A DNA stretch of 43,535 nt from an uncultured archaeon. GTDB lineage: Archaea > Thermoproteota > Nitrososphaeria_A > Caldarchaeales > Wolframiiraptoraceae. Each line of letters opens with the position of its first letter. Within the stretch, counting starts at the first letter, position 1. Positions 2,346 through 43,018 of the stretch are shown here, in pieces. The DNA lies in contig CALKCF010000008.1 in assembly GCA_938083505.1 (NCBI GenBank), positions 1 to 43,535 of the forward strand, in the 5' to 3' direction. Made by a program: the position numbers and the translations under genes. Under the pieces are notes generated by a model. That model had not been told where the DNA came from, did no database searches, and saw nothing but the letters and a program-made list of their open reading frames with translations.

Positions 2346-2984
2346 GTGAAAGTCTCTGTAATAGTACCAACTTTAGATATATCTAAGGCCCAGAAATACG
2401 TGGGAGAGTCTTTAAAAGATTGTCGAGTGAATATCACTTACGTAATCGATATCTACAAGAATGTATCAAAAACGAGGAATAAGGGTGCGGAAAAAGAGAA
2501 AGATGCTGATGTATTATTCTTTATTGACGATGACATGGAAATAGATCCAGAGCATTTTAGAAAATGGCTTGGTTTAATACTTGAGAATAGAAAAAATGTG
2601 ATTTGGAGCGAGCCACACCGTTTAATTTTTGGCATAGCTAGAGAGCTTTTCATACTAATTGGAGGCTTTGATGAAAGGTTACCTTTAATGTCAGAAGATA
2701 CTGAGATGTGGTATACATTAAAGAAACTTGAGAGGGCAGGAGTCTTACGGATAAACATCGTTGAGGAGGGATATGTCCACCACACGACACCAAAAGGATT
2801 TGAGAGAAAATGGTTAAACGAGAAGCACAGCGTTTACACATTCCTGAAGCATGATAGGAAGAGGCTCTTGCATGCCTTGAAGAGGTATCAAGATGGTTGG
2901 AAAATATTTTTGATGCGATACGTTTGGTTAGTTTGGGCGGTTTGGAAGCTTCTATTTTTCAAAAGAACTGATTGCAAATTCTAA
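2346..2984 (+). CDS. Glycosyltransferase family 2 (GT-A fold)
   Basis: VSVIVPT, RNKGA, FFIDDD (DxD-like), IGGFDE, SED motifs; visibly more AT-rich than sufCB. Confidence 0.85.
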   Translation: MKVSVIVPTLDISKAQKYVGESLKDCRVNITYVIDIYKNVSKTRNKGAEKEKDADVLFFIDDDMEIDPEHFRKWLGLILENRKNVIWSEPHRLIFGIARELFILIGGFDERLPLMSEDTEMWYTLKKLERAGVLRINIVEEGYVHHTTPKGFERKWLNEKHSVYTFLKHDRKRLLHALKRYQDGWKIFLMRYVWLVWAVWKLLFFKRTDCKF

Positions 2985-2995
2985 AAACTCTTAAG

Positions 2996-3089
2996 TGGGC
3001 CGGCCCGGACTCGAACCGGGGATTTCCACCGCTTCCTGTAGCCGTAGCCTAAGTCAGGGTGGCGTCATACCAGGCTAGACCACCGGCCC
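2996..3089 (-). tRNA. tRNA-Val(GAC) with 20-nt intron (3033-3052, most likely at position 36/37)
   Basis: Reverse strand folds as GGGCCGG/CCGGCCC acceptor, CCACC/GGTGG anticodon stem, GGTTCGAGTCC T arm; removing TTAGGCTACGGCTACAGGAA gives loop CTGACGC. Confidence 0.93.
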
Positions 3090-3201
3090 TCAAGATCACT
3101 AAAAATTCGAGCTATTGATATATATCTATATCCTTAACTTGATGGAATAGACGGCCCCTTATGGTCGACCGTTTCTTATGCTTTACGAATTCGGTGCGAG
3201 G

Positions 3202-3390
3202 TTACACGCGGTTATTGTTTGCTTGTTGCACTCTGCACGTCTGAGTCTCCTGCTCGTTGAACTTCTCCAGCAACCTTCGTATAGCATCTTTAACGAACTC
3301 TGCCCTGCTGCTGTAACCTGCCTTGTATAGTATTTTATCTATCTGAAGACCTATCTCCTCAGGAATCTTCACGGTCACGTAACGCGTCAT
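3202..3390 (-). CDS. Ribbon-helix-helix (CopG/Arc-like) DNA-binding protein
   Basis: YVTVKIPEE strand-helix followed by GYSSRAEFVKDAIRRLL, typical RHH. Confidence 0.85.
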   Translation of the reverse strand: MTRYVTVKIPEEIGLQIDKILYKAGYSSRAEFVKDAIRRLLEKFNEQETQTCRVQQANNNRV

Positions 3391-3608
3391 ATGGGCTCAC
3401 ATTATGCCAGTAAGAGTAGCCAATTGATAAATATAACCCAGTTTTTGTAAATTTTTATAAGAAAACATAGGGAGTCGTCTGAGACGATTTTGAACTTTTA
3501 TGTAATACTTTATATTATGGTGTAAAAATCTTAAAATGTGCATGCTACAATGATCGCATTAACATTCACGCATTTTTTGTACAACCACCCTTCGGGAGGT
3601 TTTAGGAC

Positions 3609-10747: not shown

Positions 10748-12670
10748 TTAGAGTTCTGCGAATATTTCGTTTATTGTTGCTGTGGCCACACACACATATG
10801 TGTCGGCAGCGCCATAGTATAGGAATATTCTATTATCTCGAACAACAGCTCCACATGGGAAGACGACATTTTTTACGTATCCCTCTCTTTCGTAAGATGC
10901 TTCTGGAGACAGAAGCGTCGTGGTTGTTCTGGCTATAACCTTCTCCGGTTTCTTAAGGTCTAAAAGTGCTGCGCCAACATGATAGAAGTTATCGTGGGAG
11001 ACACCATGATAGAAGATTAACCAACCCTTTTCTGTCCTGATTGGCGGTGTAGCCAAACCCACTTTCTTCCCATCCCACATTCCAACCCTTGATGCAAGCA
11101 AGCTGTGTGAGACAAGCATCGTCGGATCAACGGTCTCCAATGAGTCAATGTAATCGTAGGTTACGTTTATGCCGCCAGCTCTGTGTATGTAGAAATACTT
11201 CCCGTTTATGGGCTCTGGTATGATGCATGCATTTTTATCGTCTATGCCAGGCGGAGAGATTATCTTGGGCCTTGACCACTTCCAGTCCCGATTAAGGAAG
11301 TCATTTATCTTGATGGAAGTCACAGCAACCTTTGGCGGGTTAACGTTGTCGTAGGCAGTATAGAACATGTAAAGCTTATCTCCGACTTTCACGATTCTTG
11401 GGTCTTCGCATCCTGAATGGCCTGGTGTAGCCTTTCTCTCAAAAGGCTCCCTCGGAACATAAATTGGCTCATCTAAAATTTCTTCAATTGTGAAACCGTC
11501 GCTGGTTATTGCCAGACCTATCGTGGAAGTTTTATCCTGCGAGAGGGCTCTAAAGAGTATATAGATCTGGTCTTCAAGTTCTATAGCAGCCGGATTGAAG
11601 GTTGCGATGCTCCGCCACTCAAAGCGCCTGTCAGGCGAGATTATAGGGTTTTTAGCATACCTTTTAAATACCGATTTCAGACCACTTTTGAGAATTCTCT
11701 TGATGTGGCTCAATCTTGCTGTGGCTAAGCAACAGACGGTGTCGGCAGCCCCATAATAAAGCCTTATCCAGTCCTTATGCCTTATGACCGAGGATGGGAA
11801 GACAACCTTTGGGATGTGACCGTAAACCTCGTACACCTCTTCGGGAACCATAAAGGGATAATGGGTTTTGGCTATAATTCTACGCGGATCATCAAGGTCA
11901 AGGAGCAGAGCTTCAACACCGAAAACTCTTTCCGTGGGCGATTCTGAAAAATAGTTTTGGATGTAAGAGTATATGAGGAGCCAGCCCTCTTCTACTTCTA
12001 TAGGTGGAGCACCGACTTCAATATGATCCCTCGGCGATCGTCTAGGATCGGGTCTCAACGTCCAGCTCATAAATTCCCTATACCACTCCTCCATCTCAGT
12101 GTACCAGAGCGATGGGTCATCGCCAAGTTGGGCTACGCATATGTAGGCCGGCGGCCTGTCTGTGTGAACTGTCAGAATCGCCGTAAGCTTTCCGTTTATT
12201 CGTTTTGGGAAAAGCGCCATAGCCTTCGCGTTAAAAGGTGTGACAAGATATTTTCCCTCAATCTTTTCTAGATCCCTGCTCACGGCAACTCCAACCCTTA
12301 TCCCTTCGGCCTTAGGTGGCAGGCTGGATATCGCCGTGTAGAAAATGTAGTACTTTCCATCTATGTACGTCACTCGAGGATCCTCGCATCCGAATCTTTC
12401 CCATTCCATTTCCGGGTATATGAAGCATCGTCGTTCACCGAAGTGCACACCGTCTTTGCTTACGGCAATCCCTATTGAGCTGAAGCTTGACCCTTGCTTC
12501 TTCAGGAGGTCAGAAGAAGAAATTGCACGGTAAAGCATATAATACTTGCCGCCTCTCTGAATAACCGCCGGATTGAATGTGGCGTATGCCTCCCACGAGT
12601 TCTCTCTTACAGGAAGCAGGATCGGATTCTCATCACTACGACTAATCATAATGATTGCCTTAAATTTCAT
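10748..12670 (-). CDS. GH130-family glycoside phosphorylase/hydrolase with two tandem propeller domains
   Basis: Two copies of NP.I.P...FNPA...L.RA...GCEDPR...VVFP...YYGAADT. Confidence 0.9.
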   Translation of the reverse strand: MKFKAIIMISRSDENPILLPVRENSWEAYATFNPAVIQRGGKYYMLYRAISSSDLLKKQGSSFSSIGIAVSKDGVHFGERRCFIYPEMEWERFGCEDPRVTYIDGKYYIFYTAISSLPPKAEGIRVGVAVSRDLEKIEGKYLVTPFNAKAMALFPKRINGKLTAILTVHTDRPPAYICVAQLGDDPSLWYTEMEEWYREFMSWTLRPDPRRSPRDHIEVGAPPIEVEEGWLLIYSYIQNYFSESPTERVFGVEALLLDLDDPRRIIAKTHYPFMVPEEVYEVYGHIPKVVFPSSVIRHKDWIRLYYGAADTVCCLATARLSHIKRILKSGLKSVFKRYAKNPIISPDRRFEWRSIATFNPAAIELEDQIYILFRALSQDKTSTIGLAITSDGFTIEEILDEPIYVPREPFERKATPGHSGCEDPRIVKVGDKLYMFYTAYDNVNPPKVAVTSIKINDFLNRDWKWSRPKIISPPGIDDKNACIIPEPINGKYFYIHRAGGINVTYDYIDSLETVDPTMLVSHSLLASRVGMWDGKKVGLATPPIRTEKGWLIFYHGVSHDNFYHVGAALLDLKKPEKVIARTTTTLLSPEASYEREGYVKNVVFPCGAVVRDNRIFLYYGAADTYVCVATATINEIFAEL

Positions 12671-12685
12671 TAACTATTCAAACAT

Positions 12686-13750
12686 TTAAACATAATTTCT
12701 CCGCTCCCTCAGTAAAAGTTCAACAAGCTCTGTTATATTTCCTCTTGCAACGCAAACGTAGTTATCTGCAGCTCCATAGTAAACCAGTAGATCGTCATCT
12801 TTTACAACGGCACCAGTTACGTATATCACGCCAGGCTTGAATCCTTCATGCTCGTATTTCTCCGTAGGCTCCAGCACAGGATACTTACTTACAGCTATGA
12901 TTTGTCTTGGATCCTGCAGATCCAAAAGCATCATGCCCACTTTATATTTGCCGGGCTCCTTGGTATCTGCCGCATGGTAGAGGAGAAACCATCCCTCCGC
13001 GGTTTCTAGGGGTGGAGCTGCCACCCCCCTCACATACCCTTCCCAGAAATGTCTCCAAAGGATGCGGCCTTCATCGAAGATGCTCCGTATATAAAAGCCC
13101 TCAGCAACCTCAAGGGAGTCGAGAAACTCAATCTGTAAAGTCGGTGACAGACTATGTAGGATCGCATACTTACCCTTGAACTTTTTAGGAAACAAAACCC
13201 AGTTTTTGTGAGATTCCCCTGGAGGTGAAATAATCCTAGGCTTAGCCCAACGCCACCTTTTATCGAGGAAGTCCTCAACGCTTATTGAGGTTAAAGCCAC
13301 TCCTAGATTTAAACCGTCATAAGCCGCATACAGCATATAAAGCATACCTTCGTCCTCTACGTGAACAATTCTGGGATCCTCGGCGCCTATAAACGAGCCG
13401 CCTGAGGCGCTCATCAACGGACAAAACATGTTTTCAACCCTATGCTCGTAAACAGGATAGTCGAGTCGTTTGATAATTTCAAAACCATCAACGCTCGAAG
13501 CATAACCTAATCGTGAAACCAGATCATCACCGATAGCCCTATATAAAAGGTGAACCCTACCATCAACATAGACCGCTCCAGGATTAAACGTCTGTCTGCT
13601 CTCCCACCAGAAACCCTCTCTAGGTGAAATTATAGGGTTAAAAGAATACTTCTTAAAGATCTGCAAAAAACCAGCGGAACTACATCCAAGCATACTGTCC
13701 CTACAAACATTAATTAAAACAAAAGGTAAATATAAACCGATATTTGTCAT
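12686..13750 (-). CDS. GH130-family glycosidase, single domain
   Basis: NPIISP, TFNPGA, LYRA, AEDPR, KNWVLFP, YYGAAD; start likely downstream of 13750. Confidence 0.88.
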   Translation of the reverse strand: MTNIGLYLPFVLINVCRDSMLGCSSAGFLQIFKKYSFNPIISPREGFWWESRQTFNPGAVYVDGRVHLLYRAIGDDLVSRLGYASSVDGFEIIKRLDYPVYEHRVENMFCPLMSASGGSFIGAEDPRIVHVEDEGMLYMLYAAYDGLNLGVALTSISVEDFLDKRWRWAKPRIISPPGESHKNWVLFPKKFKGKYAILHSLSPTLQIEFLDSLEVAEGFYIRSIFDEGRILWRHFWEGYVRGVAAPPLETAEGWFLLYHAADTKEPGKYKVGMMLLDLQDPRQIIAVSKYPVLEPTEKYEHEGFKPGVIYVTGAVVKDDDLLVYYGAADNYVCVARGNITELVELLLRERRNYV

Positions 13751-13799
13751 TTATAATTTTAGCAAAATTACGGACAAGAGTATTTAGGATGTAGAGGGG

Positions 13800-14310
13800 C
13801 ACTCAAATCTACTATCTAACATTCTGCATTTTTCAGCTGATCCTTTGTTTATAGTGTTAACCTTTGAAGAAGCTCCCATGAAACGTTAAGACTTTACTTT
13901 AAAATTTCATCAAAAATTTCTTCGGCTCTTCTTAGGTTTAACGTGAGGGTGTCATCGACAAACTCCATGTTTTTAATTTTTGAACTCATCGTGCATAAGC
14001 TTGATTTCTCTAACAACATTTTTTGAGACTTCTATCACAGCAATATTCTCCAAAAAGGTGTGAAGGGTGCAAAAAGAGCATTTAAACGGGCATCCTATGC
14101 TGGTGATTATCGGCACGTGACTGATGCCTTGAAACATATATTTCTCTATAGAAAGTAGGTTAAGACTTGGAACTGGAGGTTATACCTCTAATGTCCTCTA
14201 GGCAGATCTCATGATCTATTTGTATTAATAAGTTCCTTGAAGATCTCCTTGGACAACAACGCTTATGCTTCTGCATTCGCCCAAGAGGACTTCCTCCAAG
14301 AAGAGGCACT
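13800..14310 (-). pseudogene. B12-binding radical SAM protein pseudogene
   Basis: Fragments in several frames: EEVLLGECRSISVVVQG, FKELI...EDIRGIT, PIITSIGCPFKCSFC (CxxxCxxC), KNVVREIK, EFVDDTLTLN...EIFDEIL; stops and frameshifts. Confidence 0.8.
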
Positions 14311-38442: not shown

Positions 38443-39024
38443 ATGGTAAAATTTTATTTGATTTTGACAGGAGAAAGAGGTTATGCCGTACTTATTATAG
38501 CCGCGTCGTTTACCCTTATGATTATGCCTTTTTATATTACGTTTAATGAGCTTCTCACGGAGATCATAAAATCGATCGGTTTATGGTGGTTCATAGAGGC
38601 ATACATTGCACCACTCGTGGCACATCTTGCGGCATCTATGCTGAGCCTTTTCGGATTTAATGTTACATTATCGGGCCCACTCATTTACCTAAATGCGCCA
38701 AGCGGGGCGGTAGCTTTATACATAGCTTGGAACTGTATAGGCTGGCAGAGCCTTGTTATATTCTCTGCCATATCCTACCTCGTTCTCAAAGAGTCGCATC
38801 TTTCCCGTGTCGAAAAGTTTACAATGTTATTTTTAGGTTTTCAGGGAACGATTTTAGTAAACATACTTAGGATAGCACTCGTGGCTCTTATAGCGATATA
38901 TTTTGGGAAGGGTCCGGCCATAATATTCCATGACTACTTTGGTAGCTTCCTCACGTTCGGTTGGCTCACGCTCTTCTGGTTCATAAGCACACGCACTGGT
39001 GGTGAGAATGTTGCAGGTACTTGA
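38443..39024 (+). CDS. Exosortase/archaeosortase family transpeptidase
   Basis: Multi-TM with IAWNCIG (Cys), VNILRI (Arg), FHDYFG (His). Confidence 0.88.
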   Translation: MVKFYLILTGERGYAVLIIAASFTLMIMPFYITFNELLTEIIKSIGLWWFIEAYIAPLVAHLAASMLSLFGFNVTLSGPLIYLNAPSGAVALYIAWNCIGWQSLVIFSAISYLVLKESHLSRVEKFTMLFLGFQGTILVNILRIALVALIAIYFGKGPAIIFHDYFGSFLTFGWLTLFWFISTRTGGENVAGT

Positions 39025-41461
39025 GCTACTGCCATACGTCAGCCTAGCTTTTGGTTTACTTTTCTTTACGTATGCACTAAGATACTATCTAGCGCTGGCG
39101 TACACGGCATATATACTTTTCAGAGGGCGCAAATACAACAACTATGGAAAAAACGATTTCCAAACTAATGGTGGTCTAAAGTTAAGAAATTACGCGAACG
39201 GTGGCACGTCTTCCTACCCTTTTTTTAACGGCAACCACTTTCCGATGGTGAGCATACACATACCCCTATACAACGAGGAAAGGGTTGCGGCGAGACTAAT
39301 GGAAGCCCTCCTTTCATTAGAGTACCCAAGATACGAGGTAATCGTCGTGGACGACTCGACCGACTCGACACCCGTTATATTAAAGCGTTATGAAAAAGAC
39401 CCACGCGTGAAGATAATACATAGGCAGAATAGGAGCGGCTTCAAAGGTGGAGCGTTACGTGAAGCGCTCAAAATTATGAGCGATGAGGCTGAGTACGTCG
39501 TTGTATTCGATGCAGACTTCATACCACCGAAGGACATAATCCAAAGGTTGCTTAGCGAGTTCAGCAACGCATACAGCAACGCCAAGTTTGATGAGAAGAA
39601 AAACGGCAAAAACTTACGTAAAATATTAGACGAACTCTACAACTCAAGGGAAATCGTCGCGGTTCAAGGCTACCAGTGGCACGTCCTGAACGCTTCTGAG
39701 AACTGGATAACGAAGGCCGTGAGTGCTGAGTACGCGGGCAACTATTTGGTTGAGAGGTTATTCGTGAACAGTTTGATGCTAGGCGTACGCATGATATCCG
39801 GCAGCGTCTTTATGATAAGGGCTGACATACTACGCCAGTATGGCTGGAGGGACAGCCTGACAGAGGACTGGGACTTGACGCTTAGGCTTTATCGTGATGG
39901 TTACAAAGTCAGATACACCCAGCTGGCAGCCGCACCTGCCGAGTGCCCTGCCACCCTTACGTCGCTAATTAGACAGAGGGCCCGATGGGCTGAGGGCCAC
40001 ACGTTTGCCGTGAAGCGTTATTTCATGGAGATACTTAGGAGCAAGTTCTTATCTTTAAGGGAGAAGTTGGAGTTTCTCTACTTATCTCCGTACTACCTCA
40101 GCAGCTTATTCCTCATACTTGGGACAGCCTTATGGTTGACTGCGGAACTCTTGAGGGTAAAGATACCGTTCTGGACCTCGACTTTTGGGTGGTCGCTACT
40201 AATTACCAACATGATGGCCATACCACTCGTCAACCTGACCGGTCTGTGGCTAGAGTACAGAGCTTCTAAGCATTGGCATGGAGCCTTCACCTTCATCCCG
40301 CTCATGCATGTCTTAGCAATATTCCAAGCAGTAGCCGCGCTTAAGGGACTATTCGGTAAAAAGGAGTCCGCTTGGTTCAGGACACTGAAGACTGGGAAGA
40401 TTACTGAGGGCATCTTTGCGTATATCACGAGAATCCTTAAGGGCAGAAGACCTACGAAGAAAAGGTCAGGGATAGTATCTTGTGCGATCCTATCGCTCCT
40501 ATCCTCCTTCTTGGCCTACGCCCTCATTAAGCTCCTAATGAAGAGCGCTGAGGAGTCTGGAAGGATACCGCAGCCAGCCGAGTACGCCATCCTGATGGCC
40601 AGCATATCCGTGGGAATCACTACACTCGTTTGGTTAATGAGTCGAGGTACCCGAATAGGGGGCATGATGCCCAAGCTACTCATAAGCATCGCCGTCATGG
40701 CATCCTCCTACGTTCTCTTGAGACTTCTCTTCGGCGCGGAGTCCTTTACGTTCTATGAGTTTGCCTCTGCCATGACATCTGCTTGCTTGGGAATGTGCCT
40801 CTTCTATAGTTCAAGGTTCAGCCCAAATGCCTTCGCGTTGAAGAAGGCCGGCATACTCTTCGTGATGGTGTCGTTCATGCTTCTCTTGACATTCCAGCCG
40901 GTGCAGCATACCCAAGCTTATGTGCCCCAAGAGACCCTGTACCTTTATCCTAACGGTACTCACATACCGCCTCCTTATGGTATGATGAGTAATAGGCTGC
41001 CTGAAGGGTTCCAAATTTTGTGGATAAGAACGTTTTATTGGAAGTCTACGTCAGCCTATGACTTCACTCCGCAGGACAAAGGAACCTGGGTCTTTCACTT
41101 CGCTGGGAAAAACTCACCAAATCAGTTGGAACTTAGAGTTGGTGTTAGGGTTTATGTCTCGAACGACCCCGAAAGTCCTCCGTCCAAGCTTATAAAGATA
41201 GGAGAAGCATTCTTCACAATAACAGAAATAGATGAATTTGATATAGATGTCCCAATAGAAGTGAATCCTCCGGAGTGCACCGGCTGCTACATATTCCTCA
41301 GTTTAACACCATTTGGACGGGTAGAAATGTACACAGGATATATGAAAAAATACACATACCTCGTGATACCGGAGAACTTTCTGGCATTCATGCCGTTCGC
41401 ATTATTGCTACTGCTGGCCAGAAGAGCATTCCGGAAACCAAGGCAATTAGTTCATCATTGA
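38999..41461 (+). CDS. Cellulose-synthase-like processive GT2 with C-terminal extracellular domain and PEF-CTERM-like tail
   Basis: VVDDS.D, FKGGAL, FDADF, TED, QRARW motifs; many TMs; ends VIPEN + hydrophobic helix + RRAFRK. Confidence 0.88.
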   Translation: MVRMLQVLELLPYVSLAFGLLFFTYALRYYLALAYTAYILFRGRKYNNYGKNDFQTNGGLKLRNYANGGTSSYPFFNGNHFPMVSIHIPLYNEERVAARLMEALLSLEYPRYEVIVVDDSTDSTPVILKRYEKDPRVKIIHRQNRSGFKGGALREALKIMSDEAEYVVVFDADFIPPKDIIQRLLSEFSNAYSNAKFDEKKNGKNLRKILDELYNSREIVAVQGYQWHVLNASENWITKAVSAEYAGNYLVERLFVNSLMLGVRMISGSVFMIRADILRQYGWRDSLTEDWDLTLRLYRDGYKVRYTQLAAAPAECPATLTSLIRQRARWAEGHTFAVKRYFMEILRSKFLSLREKLEFLYLSPYYLSSLFLILGTALWLTAELLRVKIPFWTSTFGWSLLITNMMAIPLVNLTGLWLEYRASKHWHGAFTFIPLMHVLAIFQAVAALKGLFGKKESAWFRTLKTGKITEGIFAYITRILKGRRPTKKRSGIVSCAILSLLSSFLAYALIKLLMKSAEESGRIPQPAEYAILMASISVGITTLVWLMSRGTRIGGMMPKLLISIAVMASSYVLLRLLFGAESFTFYEFASAMTSACLGMCLFYSSRFSPNAFALKKAGILFVMVSFMLLLTFQPVQHTQAYVPQETLYLYPNGTHIPPPYGMMSNRLPEGFQILWIRTFYWKSTSAYDFTPQDKGTWVFHFAGKNSPNQLELRVGVRVYVSNDPESPPSKLIKIGEAFFTITEIDEFDIDVPIEVNPPECTGCYIFLSLTPFGRVEMYTGYMKKYTYLVIPENFLAFMPFALLLLLARRAFRKPRQLVHH

Positions 41462-41582: not shown

Positions 41583-42302
41583 TTAAAAGACCCAGACCTT
41601 TCTGCTCAGATATGGCTCAAGCATTTTTCTATTGACCCAAAGAGTATAAACGAGCGCGCTGGCCTGCTTCACAAATCTTGGGGTAGGGCCACTTTTGCGA
41701 ATGATTTTCCTTGCTTCCTTTATCCTTTCGATCATTTCATGGCTTGGGAGCTCATCGAAAAACTCTCGGCCATAATATCTGGCAGCTCGCTGCAATAGCG
41801 AATAAATATTGGTTCCGGAAGGTGGAAGGTCTTCATAGCCGATGCCTTTCGGTAAACGCAATGCAATCTTCTTTCCACCATCTATCAGGAATAGCCCCTG
41901 AAGGTCATATGCGATCCTCGCGCGGGGCATCGATCCGACAACCCAGCTAGAAAATTCAAAAATCGCCCGCACCTTCATGATCAGCCTAGCCTCCCGCATA
42001 ATCGCGATCCATCCCTCATCCCATGCATCGTAGATCGGCCGATCGAAGTCCTCCTCATTAGGCTGACTTTTCACTAAATAGTACACCACCTTTTTCCCCT
42101 CTCGATAGCCCCTGACGAAACCCCTCTTCTCAGCATCTTTTAGCACCCTCGCGGCCCTCGTCCTATTATGCCCCCTAACAAGCTCAGAAAATGTTTTTGG
42201 CCCCTCGATTAGCGGCGAGAGGATCTTGCAGTATAAATTATCGGATACTCCTAATGGGCTCTTCGGCCTTCCTCTATGTTTTTTTCCGGAATCTACGACC
42301 AT
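41583..42302 (-). CDS. Winged-HTH regulator with N-terminal AT-hook-like motif
   Basis: KHRGRPKS; IL..L.EGPKTFSEL...RVLK.AEKRGFV...EGKKVVYYL. Confidence 0.7.
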   Translation of the reverse strand: MVVDSGKKHRGRPKSPLGVSDNLYCKILSPLIEGPKTFSELVRGHNRTRAARVLKDAEKRGFVRGYREGKKVVYYLVKSQPNEEDFDRPIYDAWDEGWIAIMREARLIMKVRAIFEFSSWVVGSMPRARIAYDLQGLFLIDGGKKIALRLPKGIGYEDLPPSGTNIYSLLQRAARYYGREFFDELPSHEMIERIKEARKIIRKSGPTPRFVKQASALVYTLWVNRKMLEPYLSRKVWVF

Positions 42303-42502: not shown

Positions 42503-43018
42503 ATGTCATTAGAGCGTTACCGAGCGCTCGAAATTAGTGCTGCGAGTACGAAGAAAATAATTGAGGAGCTGGAGGCGAGGCTGAAAAAGATAGATTCTAC
42601 ACCGGCAATTGAATTCGGTGGCAAGGCTAATCAGCTATTAAGCCGTAAGACCGTAGAACTCGTCCTTGAAGATCAAAAAGCGAAACTAACACGTATCGAG
42701 GCCGAGCTGGCCCAAATCCGCCGCGAGCTCGAGAAGAGCCTGCCTGAGAAAGAGTCAGAGTGGCGTGAAAAAGTCACGAAACACAAAGAGCTACTGGATA
42801 AAATATCAAAAAACGTGAAAAATCTTCTTCACTTGACCGGGGAAATTTTGGAGCATGAAAAGAATATGAGAGCTAACGAGAACTATTACTTTTTGTGCCA
42901 AATTTTACAGCATGAGCCCTCGGTCCCTAAGCCCAATTACTTTGGAGACATCTTAGTATACCTCAAAGGTGAATGCGAGCGCTTTTTGCGAGTTTTAGGT
43001 GAGAAGATTGAAGTTTAG
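42503..43018 (+). CDS. Coiled-coil hypothetical protein
   Basis: E/K/L-rich heptads; coupled to flanking ORFs. Confidence 0.7.
   Translation: MSLERYRALEISAASTKKIIEELEARLKKIDSTPAIEFGGKANQLLSRKTVELVLEDQKAKLTRIEAELAQIRRELEKSLPEKESEWREKVTKHKELLDKISKNVKNLLHLTGEILEHEKNMRANENYYFLCQILQHEPSVPKPNYFGDILVYLKGECERFLRVLGEKIEV

Follow-up and report, generated by a model that had tools for sequence, protein, structure and literature searches.

The window (the whole stretch of DNA analysed here, 43,535 nucleotides of contig CALKCF010000008.1 from an uncultured archaeon of the Caldarchaeales) carries near its end two overlapping open reading frames (ORFs) on the + strand. The first (38443-39024) encodes a 193-amino-acid (aa) protein of the exosortase/archaeosortase superfamily, called the sortase below. 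The second (38999-41461) encodes an 820-aa glycosyltransferase of family 2 (GT2) whose C-terminus has the layout of an exosortase signal. The two genes probably form a dedicated one-enzyme/one-substrate exosortase-type system, in which the ectodomain of the synthase carries the signal. The GT2 ORF starts at GTG 38999; the call in the public database starts at ATG 39008 and gives 817 aa, so that the overlap of the two genes is 17-26 nt depending on the GT2 start. The pair is oriented divergently from an A/V-type ATPase operon (atpE/A/B). Genome-wide counts given below refer to the genome from which the window is taken (1.15 Mb, 98.5% complete). The closest matches outside this genome are found in metagenome-assembled genomes of Candidatus Terraquivivens (Caldarchaeales, 'Aigarchaeota'), with 73-74% identity of the GT2.

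The features of the pair are given below in the order of their coordinates, with the evidence in brackets. AF2, AlphaFold2 model; pLDDT, predicted local distance difference test; TM, transmembrane.

38443-39024, + strand: mini exosortase/archaeosortase-family protein, 193 aa, sole family member in the genome (PF09721, TIGR04178).
38734-38736, + strand: codon of Cys98 (WNCIGWQ), the presumed catalytic nucleophile, invariant in 64/64 related sortase domains.
38869-38871, + strand: codon of Arg143 (N-x-x-R; NILRI), invariant in non-truncated sequences.
38929-38931, + strand: codon of His163 (FHDY), invariant in non-truncated sequences.
38999-41461, + strand: GT2 synthase gene, its start overlapping the end of the sortase gene (ORF call, Pfam).
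39230-40048, + strand: cytoplasmic GT2 catalytic domain with D, DxD, TED and QRARW (Pfam, invariant columns, Foldseek).
39974-39988, + strand: QRARW motif of the GT2 (sequence).
40049-40408, + strand: predicted interface helices and three channel helices (AF2 helices 353-452, pLDDT about 90).
40373-40396, + strand: WFRTLKTG motif, which follows the third channel helix and closes the channel-helix region (invariant across the family).
40472-40891, + strand: five predicted lineage-specific TM helices, aa 492-631 (AF2 with pLDDT about 50, hydropathy, positive-inside rule).
40910-41365, + strand: predicted extracytoplasmic beta-sandwich domain, aa 638-789 (AF2 all-beta, pLDDT 86-96; alignment).
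41363-41377, + strand: VIPEN tail motif, directly after the last beta-strand of the ectodomain (sequence, AF2).
41378-41419, + strand: hydrophobic helix of the tail, 14 residues (hydropathy, AF2).
41420-41443, + strand: basic cluster RRAFRKPR, predicted to lie on the cytoplasmic side (sequence, positive-inside rule).

The sortase is, on its profile scores, a member of the exosortase/archaeosortase superfamily that belongs to no named subfamily. It exceeds the cut-offs of PF09721 (53.8 bits; cut-off 25.7) and of the exosortase/archaeosortase signature TIGR04178 (47 bits; cut-off 23). It remains below the cut-off of every named subfamily (ArtC/E/F, XrtA/D/G/K/R/S/V/W/X, CrtA/C, thaumarchaeosortase); the best scores, in bits, are those of CrtC (38.8; cut-off 225), ArtC (35.3; 100) and XrtG (29; 102.75), and XrtA gives 21.8 (208). 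The closest relatives are found in both Archaea and Bacteria. No other exosortase-family protein was found by profile search of the 1.15-Mb genome. The equivalents of Cys98, Arg143 and His163 are invariant in 64 related sortase domains (49 free-standing sortases, 11 N-terminal sortase-domain paralogues and 4 longer ORFs including a fused sortase) wherever the sequence is not truncated. This invariance, fused forms included, points to selection on catalysis. An initial annotation, made from the sequence of the window, had described an archaeosortase with intact Cys/Arg/His motifs overlapping an 820-aa GT2 that carries the full D, DxD, TED, QxxRW signature and ends in VIPEN, a hydrophobic helix and a basic cluster. 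Both ORFs and all of these motifs were recovered, those of the GT2 being VVDDS, DAD, TED and QRARW, and the basic cluster reads RRAFRKPR. The name 'archaeosortase' proved loose: the superfamily assignment passes the profile cut-offs, and no named Art or Xrt subfamily is reached.

The GT2 matches PF00535, PF13641 and PF13632, and its motifs VVDDS, DAD, TED, QRARW and WFRTLKTG are invariant in the family alignments. Foldseek searches with its AF2 model (mean pLDDT 78) returned BcsA (9e-16), the hyaluronan synthase of Chlorella virus, CvHAS (4e-13), and the crenarchaeal PcManGT (6e-13). The model of a relative fused to a sortase gave Z-scores of 28 to PcManGT, 25 to CvHAS and 23.5 to BcsA (4p00). 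The structure matches thus include the arrangement characteristic of processive membrane GT2 synthases, a GT-A domain packed on a TM channel fold. The equivalog cut-offs of PgaC (101.5 bits; cut-off 422), CelA (64; 699) and NodC (45; 550) are not reached. Since the structures match and all equivalog cut-offs are missed, the GT2 is called processive-synthase-like, and no specific product is named: it appears to be a membrane-embedded glycan synthase resembling cellulose, hyaluronan and chitin synthases.

The core of the ectodomain (aa 646-789) is confidently modelled as a beta-sandwich (AF2, pLDDT 86-96). It has no Pfam or NCBIfam match. It carries a conserved CxxC and one N-x-T sequon. The C-x-x-C (PECTGCY) is invariant across the relatives from Caldarchaeales and Ignisphaera; it may form a disulfide or bind a metal on the outer face. 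In Candidatus Terraquivivens tikiterensis (locus L027, identical to L005), two ORFs of 673 aa (932-2953) and 154 aa (2970-3434) together make up the GT2 orthologue, and the second bears the tail, KYTYLVIPEN. Either a frameshift or an assembly error would explain this split.

The tail is the part of the protein that is kept when the ectodomain changes. The GT2 family comprises 404 clusters at E ≤1e-30 and spans Caldarchaeales, Bathyarchaeia, Nitrososphaerales, Chloroflexota, Dormibacterota and Patescibacteria. A [VI]PE tail is found at the C-terminus of 103/149 family representatives (at most 50% identity), and in 2 more the tail is followed by a fused sortase. Among the remaining 44, most are fragmentary sequences, short forms (about 500 aa) or variants with VPEIP-x-K. 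Of the full-length sequences among the 120 best relatives at the 90% cluster level, nearly all either end in [VIM]PE-x, a helix and a basic cluster or run into a sortase domain. The family logo of the tail shows V/I at 86%, then P, E at 97% and N at 46%. When C-terminal anchors made of a helix plus basic residues are compared, [VI]P[ED] stands at the start of 72/99 in the family versus 3/241 among ORFs of the genome; most of the other 27 family anchors are truncated forms or VPEIP variants. A loose pattern for the tail matches 5/1899 ORFs of at least 100 aa in the genome, and the GT2 is the only convincing match. With the profile of the Caldarchaeales ectodomain, hhalign gave a weak probability of 65% for the Bathyarchaeia ectodomain and no similarity to those of Nitrososphaerales (1%) and Chloroflexota (0.6%). 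The ectodomains being alignable weakly or not at all between lineages while the tail is kept, the conserved piece is the tail. The same signal thus occurs on otherwise dissimilar proteins: on ectodomains that do not align, on paralogues of the sortase and on proteins other than GT2s. The GT2 cores are homologous to one another. The parts of a tripartite sorting signal are all present at the C-terminus: a short motif predicted to be extracytoplasmic, a hydrophobic helix and a basic cluster.

Five family representatives (P0148, P0170, P0182, P0184 and P0191) carry the VPEIP-x-K variant before the helix. Proteins with this variant continue into a conserved cytoplasmic extension that ends in …LTGR…(D/E)(D/E)LPV.

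The [VI]PE motif (IPEN in the window) is predicted to lie on the outer face of the membrane and the basic cluster in the cytoplasm. In the GT2 of the window, a cytoplasmic loop (aa 449-491) holding 13 Lys/Arg precedes the five TM helices (aa 492-631), which are taken from AF2 and hydropathy and whose short interhelix loops obey the positive-inside rule. Most relatives have a single helix where this GT2 has five. Counting the hydrophobic segments from the cytoplasmic W-x-RT-x-K motif to the tail gives an odd number in 92 of 105 tailed representatives, and exactly one in 77. Compared with the GT domains, N-x-S/T sequons are twice as dense in the ectodomains, and the Lys+Arg content is half as high. 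Three independent architectures (tailed GT2; tailed GT2-sortase; sortase-helix-ectodomain-tail) agree in placing the motif outside and the basic cluster inside. For the enzyme, the sortase part of the AF2 model of the fused relative shows one helix, then helices and hairpins lying outside up to the Cys, then three helices. This model suggests a fold with both termini inside (N-in/C-in) and with the catalytic residues towards the outer leaflet. A five-helix reading of the sortase was rejected: its second 'helix' is amphipathic and is modelled outside in the fused homologues, and this reading would put the active site on the wrong face of the membrane.

The sortase gene accompanies the tail. It lies directly upstream of the GT2 gene in 5/5 orthologous loci of Caldarchaeales relatives (6/6 when the window is counted). 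In 4/4 distant contexts it is adjacent to the GT2 gene or in the same operon, the gene orders being varied: upstream (Ignisphaera), overlapping downstream, convergent downstream, or after a second tailed GT2. Eighty loci from species-representative genomes were surveyed, and the count was limited to GT2 ORFs that are complete and flanked by 1.5 kb or more on either side. A sortase gene lies within 1 kb of 33/37 tailed GT2s, and of 0/7 tail-less ones; for a 34th tailed GT2 it is in a shared operon. In five genomes, a tailed GT2 has no sortase in its flank (some of these flanks are short), and 4/5 of these genomes hold exosortase-family genes elsewhere. Of 41 Caldarchaeales genomes, 6 have the GT2 orthologue, and these 6 are the only ones with the exosortase signature, in one copy each and adjacent to the GT2 gene; 35 have neither.

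The initial annotation had proposed a dedicated two-gene system that would fall if the tail were not conserved in homologues, if tailed GT2s occurred without a sortase, or if IPEN were cytoplasmic. The tail turned out to be conserved; tailed GT2s generally have a sortase within 1 kb or fused to them and tail-less ones do not; and the helix count, the positive-inside rule and the topology of the fusions all place IPEN outside. The scan of the genome for IPE-tailed proteins, which the same annotation had suggested, left the GT2 with the sole convincing tail. With one sortase, one convincing tail and an adjacency that recurs, the proposal of a dedicated two-gene system is borne out at the level of gene content. 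The features published as typical of 'dedicated' one-to-one sorting systems are thus observed: an enzyme adjacent to a single target, and a sporadic distribution. In this genome, the GT2 is the only plausible substrate of the sortase.

Two architectures found here are new: GT2-ectodomain-VPEN-TM-basic-sortase and sortase-TM-ectodomain-VPE tail. In the first, found in Nitrososphaerales and others, one protein contains the GT2, one helix, the ectodomain, FPIEVPE[ND], a helix of 20 residues, a charged linker and the sortase domain. The sortase domain of these fusions keeps Cys/Arg/His, and the putative signal immediately precedes its own enzyme. ArtA is reported to process tripartite signals that are not C-terminal (PMC9263693), so that self-processing of the fusions is conceivable. 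The second architecture is found in Bathyarchaeia, where a tailed GT2 is followed by one or two genes for proteins of about 435 aa and then by a plain sortase gene. In these proteins an N-terminal sortase domain that retains Cys/Arg/His is joined through a helix to an ectodomain homologous to the GT2 ectodomain, and a tail follows. The tails are partly intact (VVPEN/K) and partly degenerate; the degenerate ones belong to the second copy, where another residue stands in place of the Pro (VVDER, VIEEE) or the motif reads VVSEN, and they keep the helix and basic tail. Such proteins would be enzymes bearing their own, sometimes disabled, signal. The loci are as follows.

Sortase-ectodomain genes of about 435 aa, Bathyarchaeia: L031; L033; L039 (8189-9499 and 9477-10772); L045; L063; L079; L083.

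Locus L023 contains, 2.4 kb from a VPEY-tailed GT2 and its sortase, a gene (11009-13981, - strand) for a 990-aa protein with a signal peptide and CarboxypepD_reg domains that ends in VPIPEF, a helix and RRRG. This protein looks like a second substrate of classical type.

The reading held to be probable is the following. The chain of the GT2 would cross the membrane again after the channel, expose its beta-sandwich on the outer face and end in [VI]PE-x, a helix and a basic cluster. The overlapping, co-translated sortase, with Cys98, Arg143 and His163 in the outer leaflet, would recognize this tail; recognition has strong comparative-genomic support. By analogy with ArtA and the exosortases, Cys98 would attack the chain at or just after the PE motif, and the C-terminal helix and basic tail would be removed. 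The acyl-enzyme would then be resolved by transfer of the new C-terminus of the ectodomain to an acceptor, for which a lipid head-group amine, water or a glycan are candidates. The upstream helices would continue to hold the ectodomain to the synthase. Such processing may serve maturation or activation, provide a lipid anchor, tether the glycan or cross-link ectodomains. In a bolder version, which is quite unlikely, the sortase would join the new C-terminus (…[VI]PE) covalently to the extruded glycan or to a neighbouring ectodomain, so that the exopolysaccharide would have an anchor that is tethered to protein or cross-linked; in that case the natural fusions would be polyproteins that process themselves and thereby set their enzyme free.

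Cleavage is suggested by analogy with ArtA and the family, and several points weigh against processing of the tail by the sortase. Searches with aa 770-820 or 640-820 gave no match to a CTERM or other NCBIfam model at E up to 10, in a search where HMMER's filtering may lose short hits of low score. The topology of the GT2 depends on five helices modelled at low confidence (pLDDT about 50), and pLDDT is below 50 around the motif in both AF2 models (the GT2 of the window and the fused relative). A polytopic substrate would stay membrane-bound after the cut, so that the usual benefit of exchanging a helix for another anchor is hard to see. In the fused forms, the lasting link to the enzyme is as compatible with a stable complex as with turnover. 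The genomes compared are related and not independent; as the counts therefore overstate the statistical support, they are given rather than P-values.

The main rival, an improbable one, makes the tail a docking helix that is not cleaved. The ectodomain and its helix would be a permanent BcsB-like module, and the VPE-helix would dock in a sortase-like subunit with a structural or glycan-handling role. Fusions in both orders suggest a stable physical complex, the upstream helices would still anchor the ectodomain after any cleavage, and the degenerate motifs of Bathyarchaeia (VVDER, VIEEE, VVSEN) keep helix and basic tail, all of which would suit docking; BcsA-BcsB is likewise a synthase with a C-terminally anchored outer partner. 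A subunit of this kind fits poorly with the Cys/Arg/His that are invariant in all 64 sortase domains, fused ones included, and with the P and E kept at the start of the helix across >100 clusters. The motif is, moreover, the PEP-CTERM core held to be cut by exosortases, and the same tail is found on an ordinary secreted protein in L023. The sortase could instead act on other secreted proteins, the GT2 being merely a co-regulated exopolysaccharide gene and its tail a membrane anchor. Exosortase genes are indeed common in exopolysaccharide loci, NCBIfam has XrtG- and XrtP-associated GT2 families, and some loci hold additional tailed proteins that are not GT2s. This reading is nevertheless very unlikely: the genome, 98.5% complete, has no other convincing tail, the sortase follows the tail and not the GT2 core (0/7 tail-less homologues have a sortase nearby), and in the fusions the tail directly precedes the sortase domain. 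Chance resemblance, that is, a generic tail anchor with a Pro-Glu helix cap beside an unrelated membrane protein, can draw on the frequency of Pro and Glu as helix N-cap residues and on the missing CTERM match. It is effectively refuted by the enrichment of [VI]P[ED] (72/99 family anchors versus 3/241 in the genome), by perfect phyletic concordance (6/6 and 0/35) and by an adjacency that recurs in Archaea and Bacteria.

In the neighbourhood of the pair, atpE adjoins the module in every congener that has it. Synteny with three congeners that do not have the module stops just after atpE, and the following 5 kb has no counterpart there. Insertion of the two genes as a clean unit was considered and rejected: the 2 kb downstream of the module also differs from the module-less congeners, which indicates a variable region and not a clean indel. 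The 5-kb region contains two further ORFs, 41583-42302 (- strand) and 42503-43018 (+ strand), neither of which has a Pfam match. At the other end of the window, ARAGORN called a 95-nt tRNA-Ser with anticodon ACT (2995-3089, - strand). The unusual anticodon and length may reflect an archaeal intron or a miscall.

Exosortases and archaeosortases are widespread and their chemistry, apart from ArtA, is hardly known. The association of exosortases with exopolysaccharide loci has long awaited an explanation. A literature search that covered few subscription journals turned up no paper on a GT2 carrying an exosortase signal, and no NCBIfam or Pfam model describing the module was found; the remark of the initial annotation that no characterised example was known agrees with both searches. 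Among six relatives looked up at NCBI, the two that are named are called just 'glycosyltransferase', so that the envelope system appears to go unlabelled. The module is best described as a dedicated exosortase system with a synthase as candidate cargo, for which the present analysis contributes a test of phyletic distribution, an argument on topology and the two fused architectures. The enzyme, its apparent single substrate and the polysaccharide synthase are here reduced to two overlapping genes, and in Nitrososphaerales to a single one. This makes the module a minimal expressible system for asking where an exosortase cuts, which acceptor it uses and what it is for. If the sortase did join the new C-terminus to glycan, exosortases and exopolysaccharide would for the first time be linked directly by a mechanism.

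Five known systems can be compared with the module. ArtA of Haloferax volcanii, which acts on PGF-CTERM proteins, is likewise an archaeal member of the superfamily that recognizes a tripartite signal. Its Cys and Arg are needed for activity, and tripartite signals that are not C-terminal can be processed (PMC9263693). Attachment of a lipid to the new C-terminus, as in ArtA, is the model for the step proposed in the window. ArtA differs in its motif (PGF, not [VI]PE) and in its substrates, which are the S-layer glycoprotein and other secreted proteins, and it is not among the NCBIfam matches of the window sortase. Dedicated sorting systems such as JDVT-CTERM have a single adjacent target and a sporadic taxonomy, and were recognized by the argument of a conserved two-gene neighbourhood (10.1101/2023.06.07.544157). 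The JDVT-CTERM enzyme is Rce1-like, whereas the one described here is exosortase-like; the motif is another one, and the target here is a glycan synthase. BcsA-BcsB, including BcsAB fusions, combines a processive GT2 with a beta-rich partner that lies outside the cytoplasm and is anchored by a C-terminal helix; it has neither a sortase nor a VPE motif, and Pfam and NCBIfam searches detected no similarity of the window ectodomain to BcsB.

The PEP-CTERM/exosortase A system (EpsH, XrtA) shares with the module a tripartite signal ([VI]PE core, hydrophobic helix, Arg/Lys cluster), an enzyme of the same superfamily with conserved Cys and Arg, and a genomic tie to exopolysaccharide synthesis. The [VI]PE core is that of the PEP-CTERM and PEF-CTERM signals. 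In classical PEP-CTERM/XrtA systems, which are found in Gram-negative bacteria, each genome encodes many secreted targets, and the enzyme has about 8 helices and 260-500 aa. The module has one polytopic synthase as its putative target and an enzyme of roughly four helices, and is found in Archaea and in mostly monoderm or ultra-small bacteria.

The closest cassette is that of XrtG of Firmicutes with its associated GT2s (TIGR03110, TIGR03111), a conserved cassette in which an exosortase-family protein of about 190 aa is encoded together with family-2 glycosyltransferases. Neither model is reached: the window sortase scores 29 bits (cut-off 102.75), and the GT2 scores 31.1 bits against TIGR03111 (cut-off 363.95). 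A PTPS_related membrane protein (PF10131, 871 aa) is encoded next to the sortase/GT2 pair of Ignisphaera (L025, 8881-11496, - strand), and this family is presumably also part of XrtG cassettes; no PTPS_related gene is found near the pair in the window. The target in XrtG systems is said to be a separate Firmicu-CTERM protein. In the module of the window, by contrast, the putative signal is borne by the GT2 itself.

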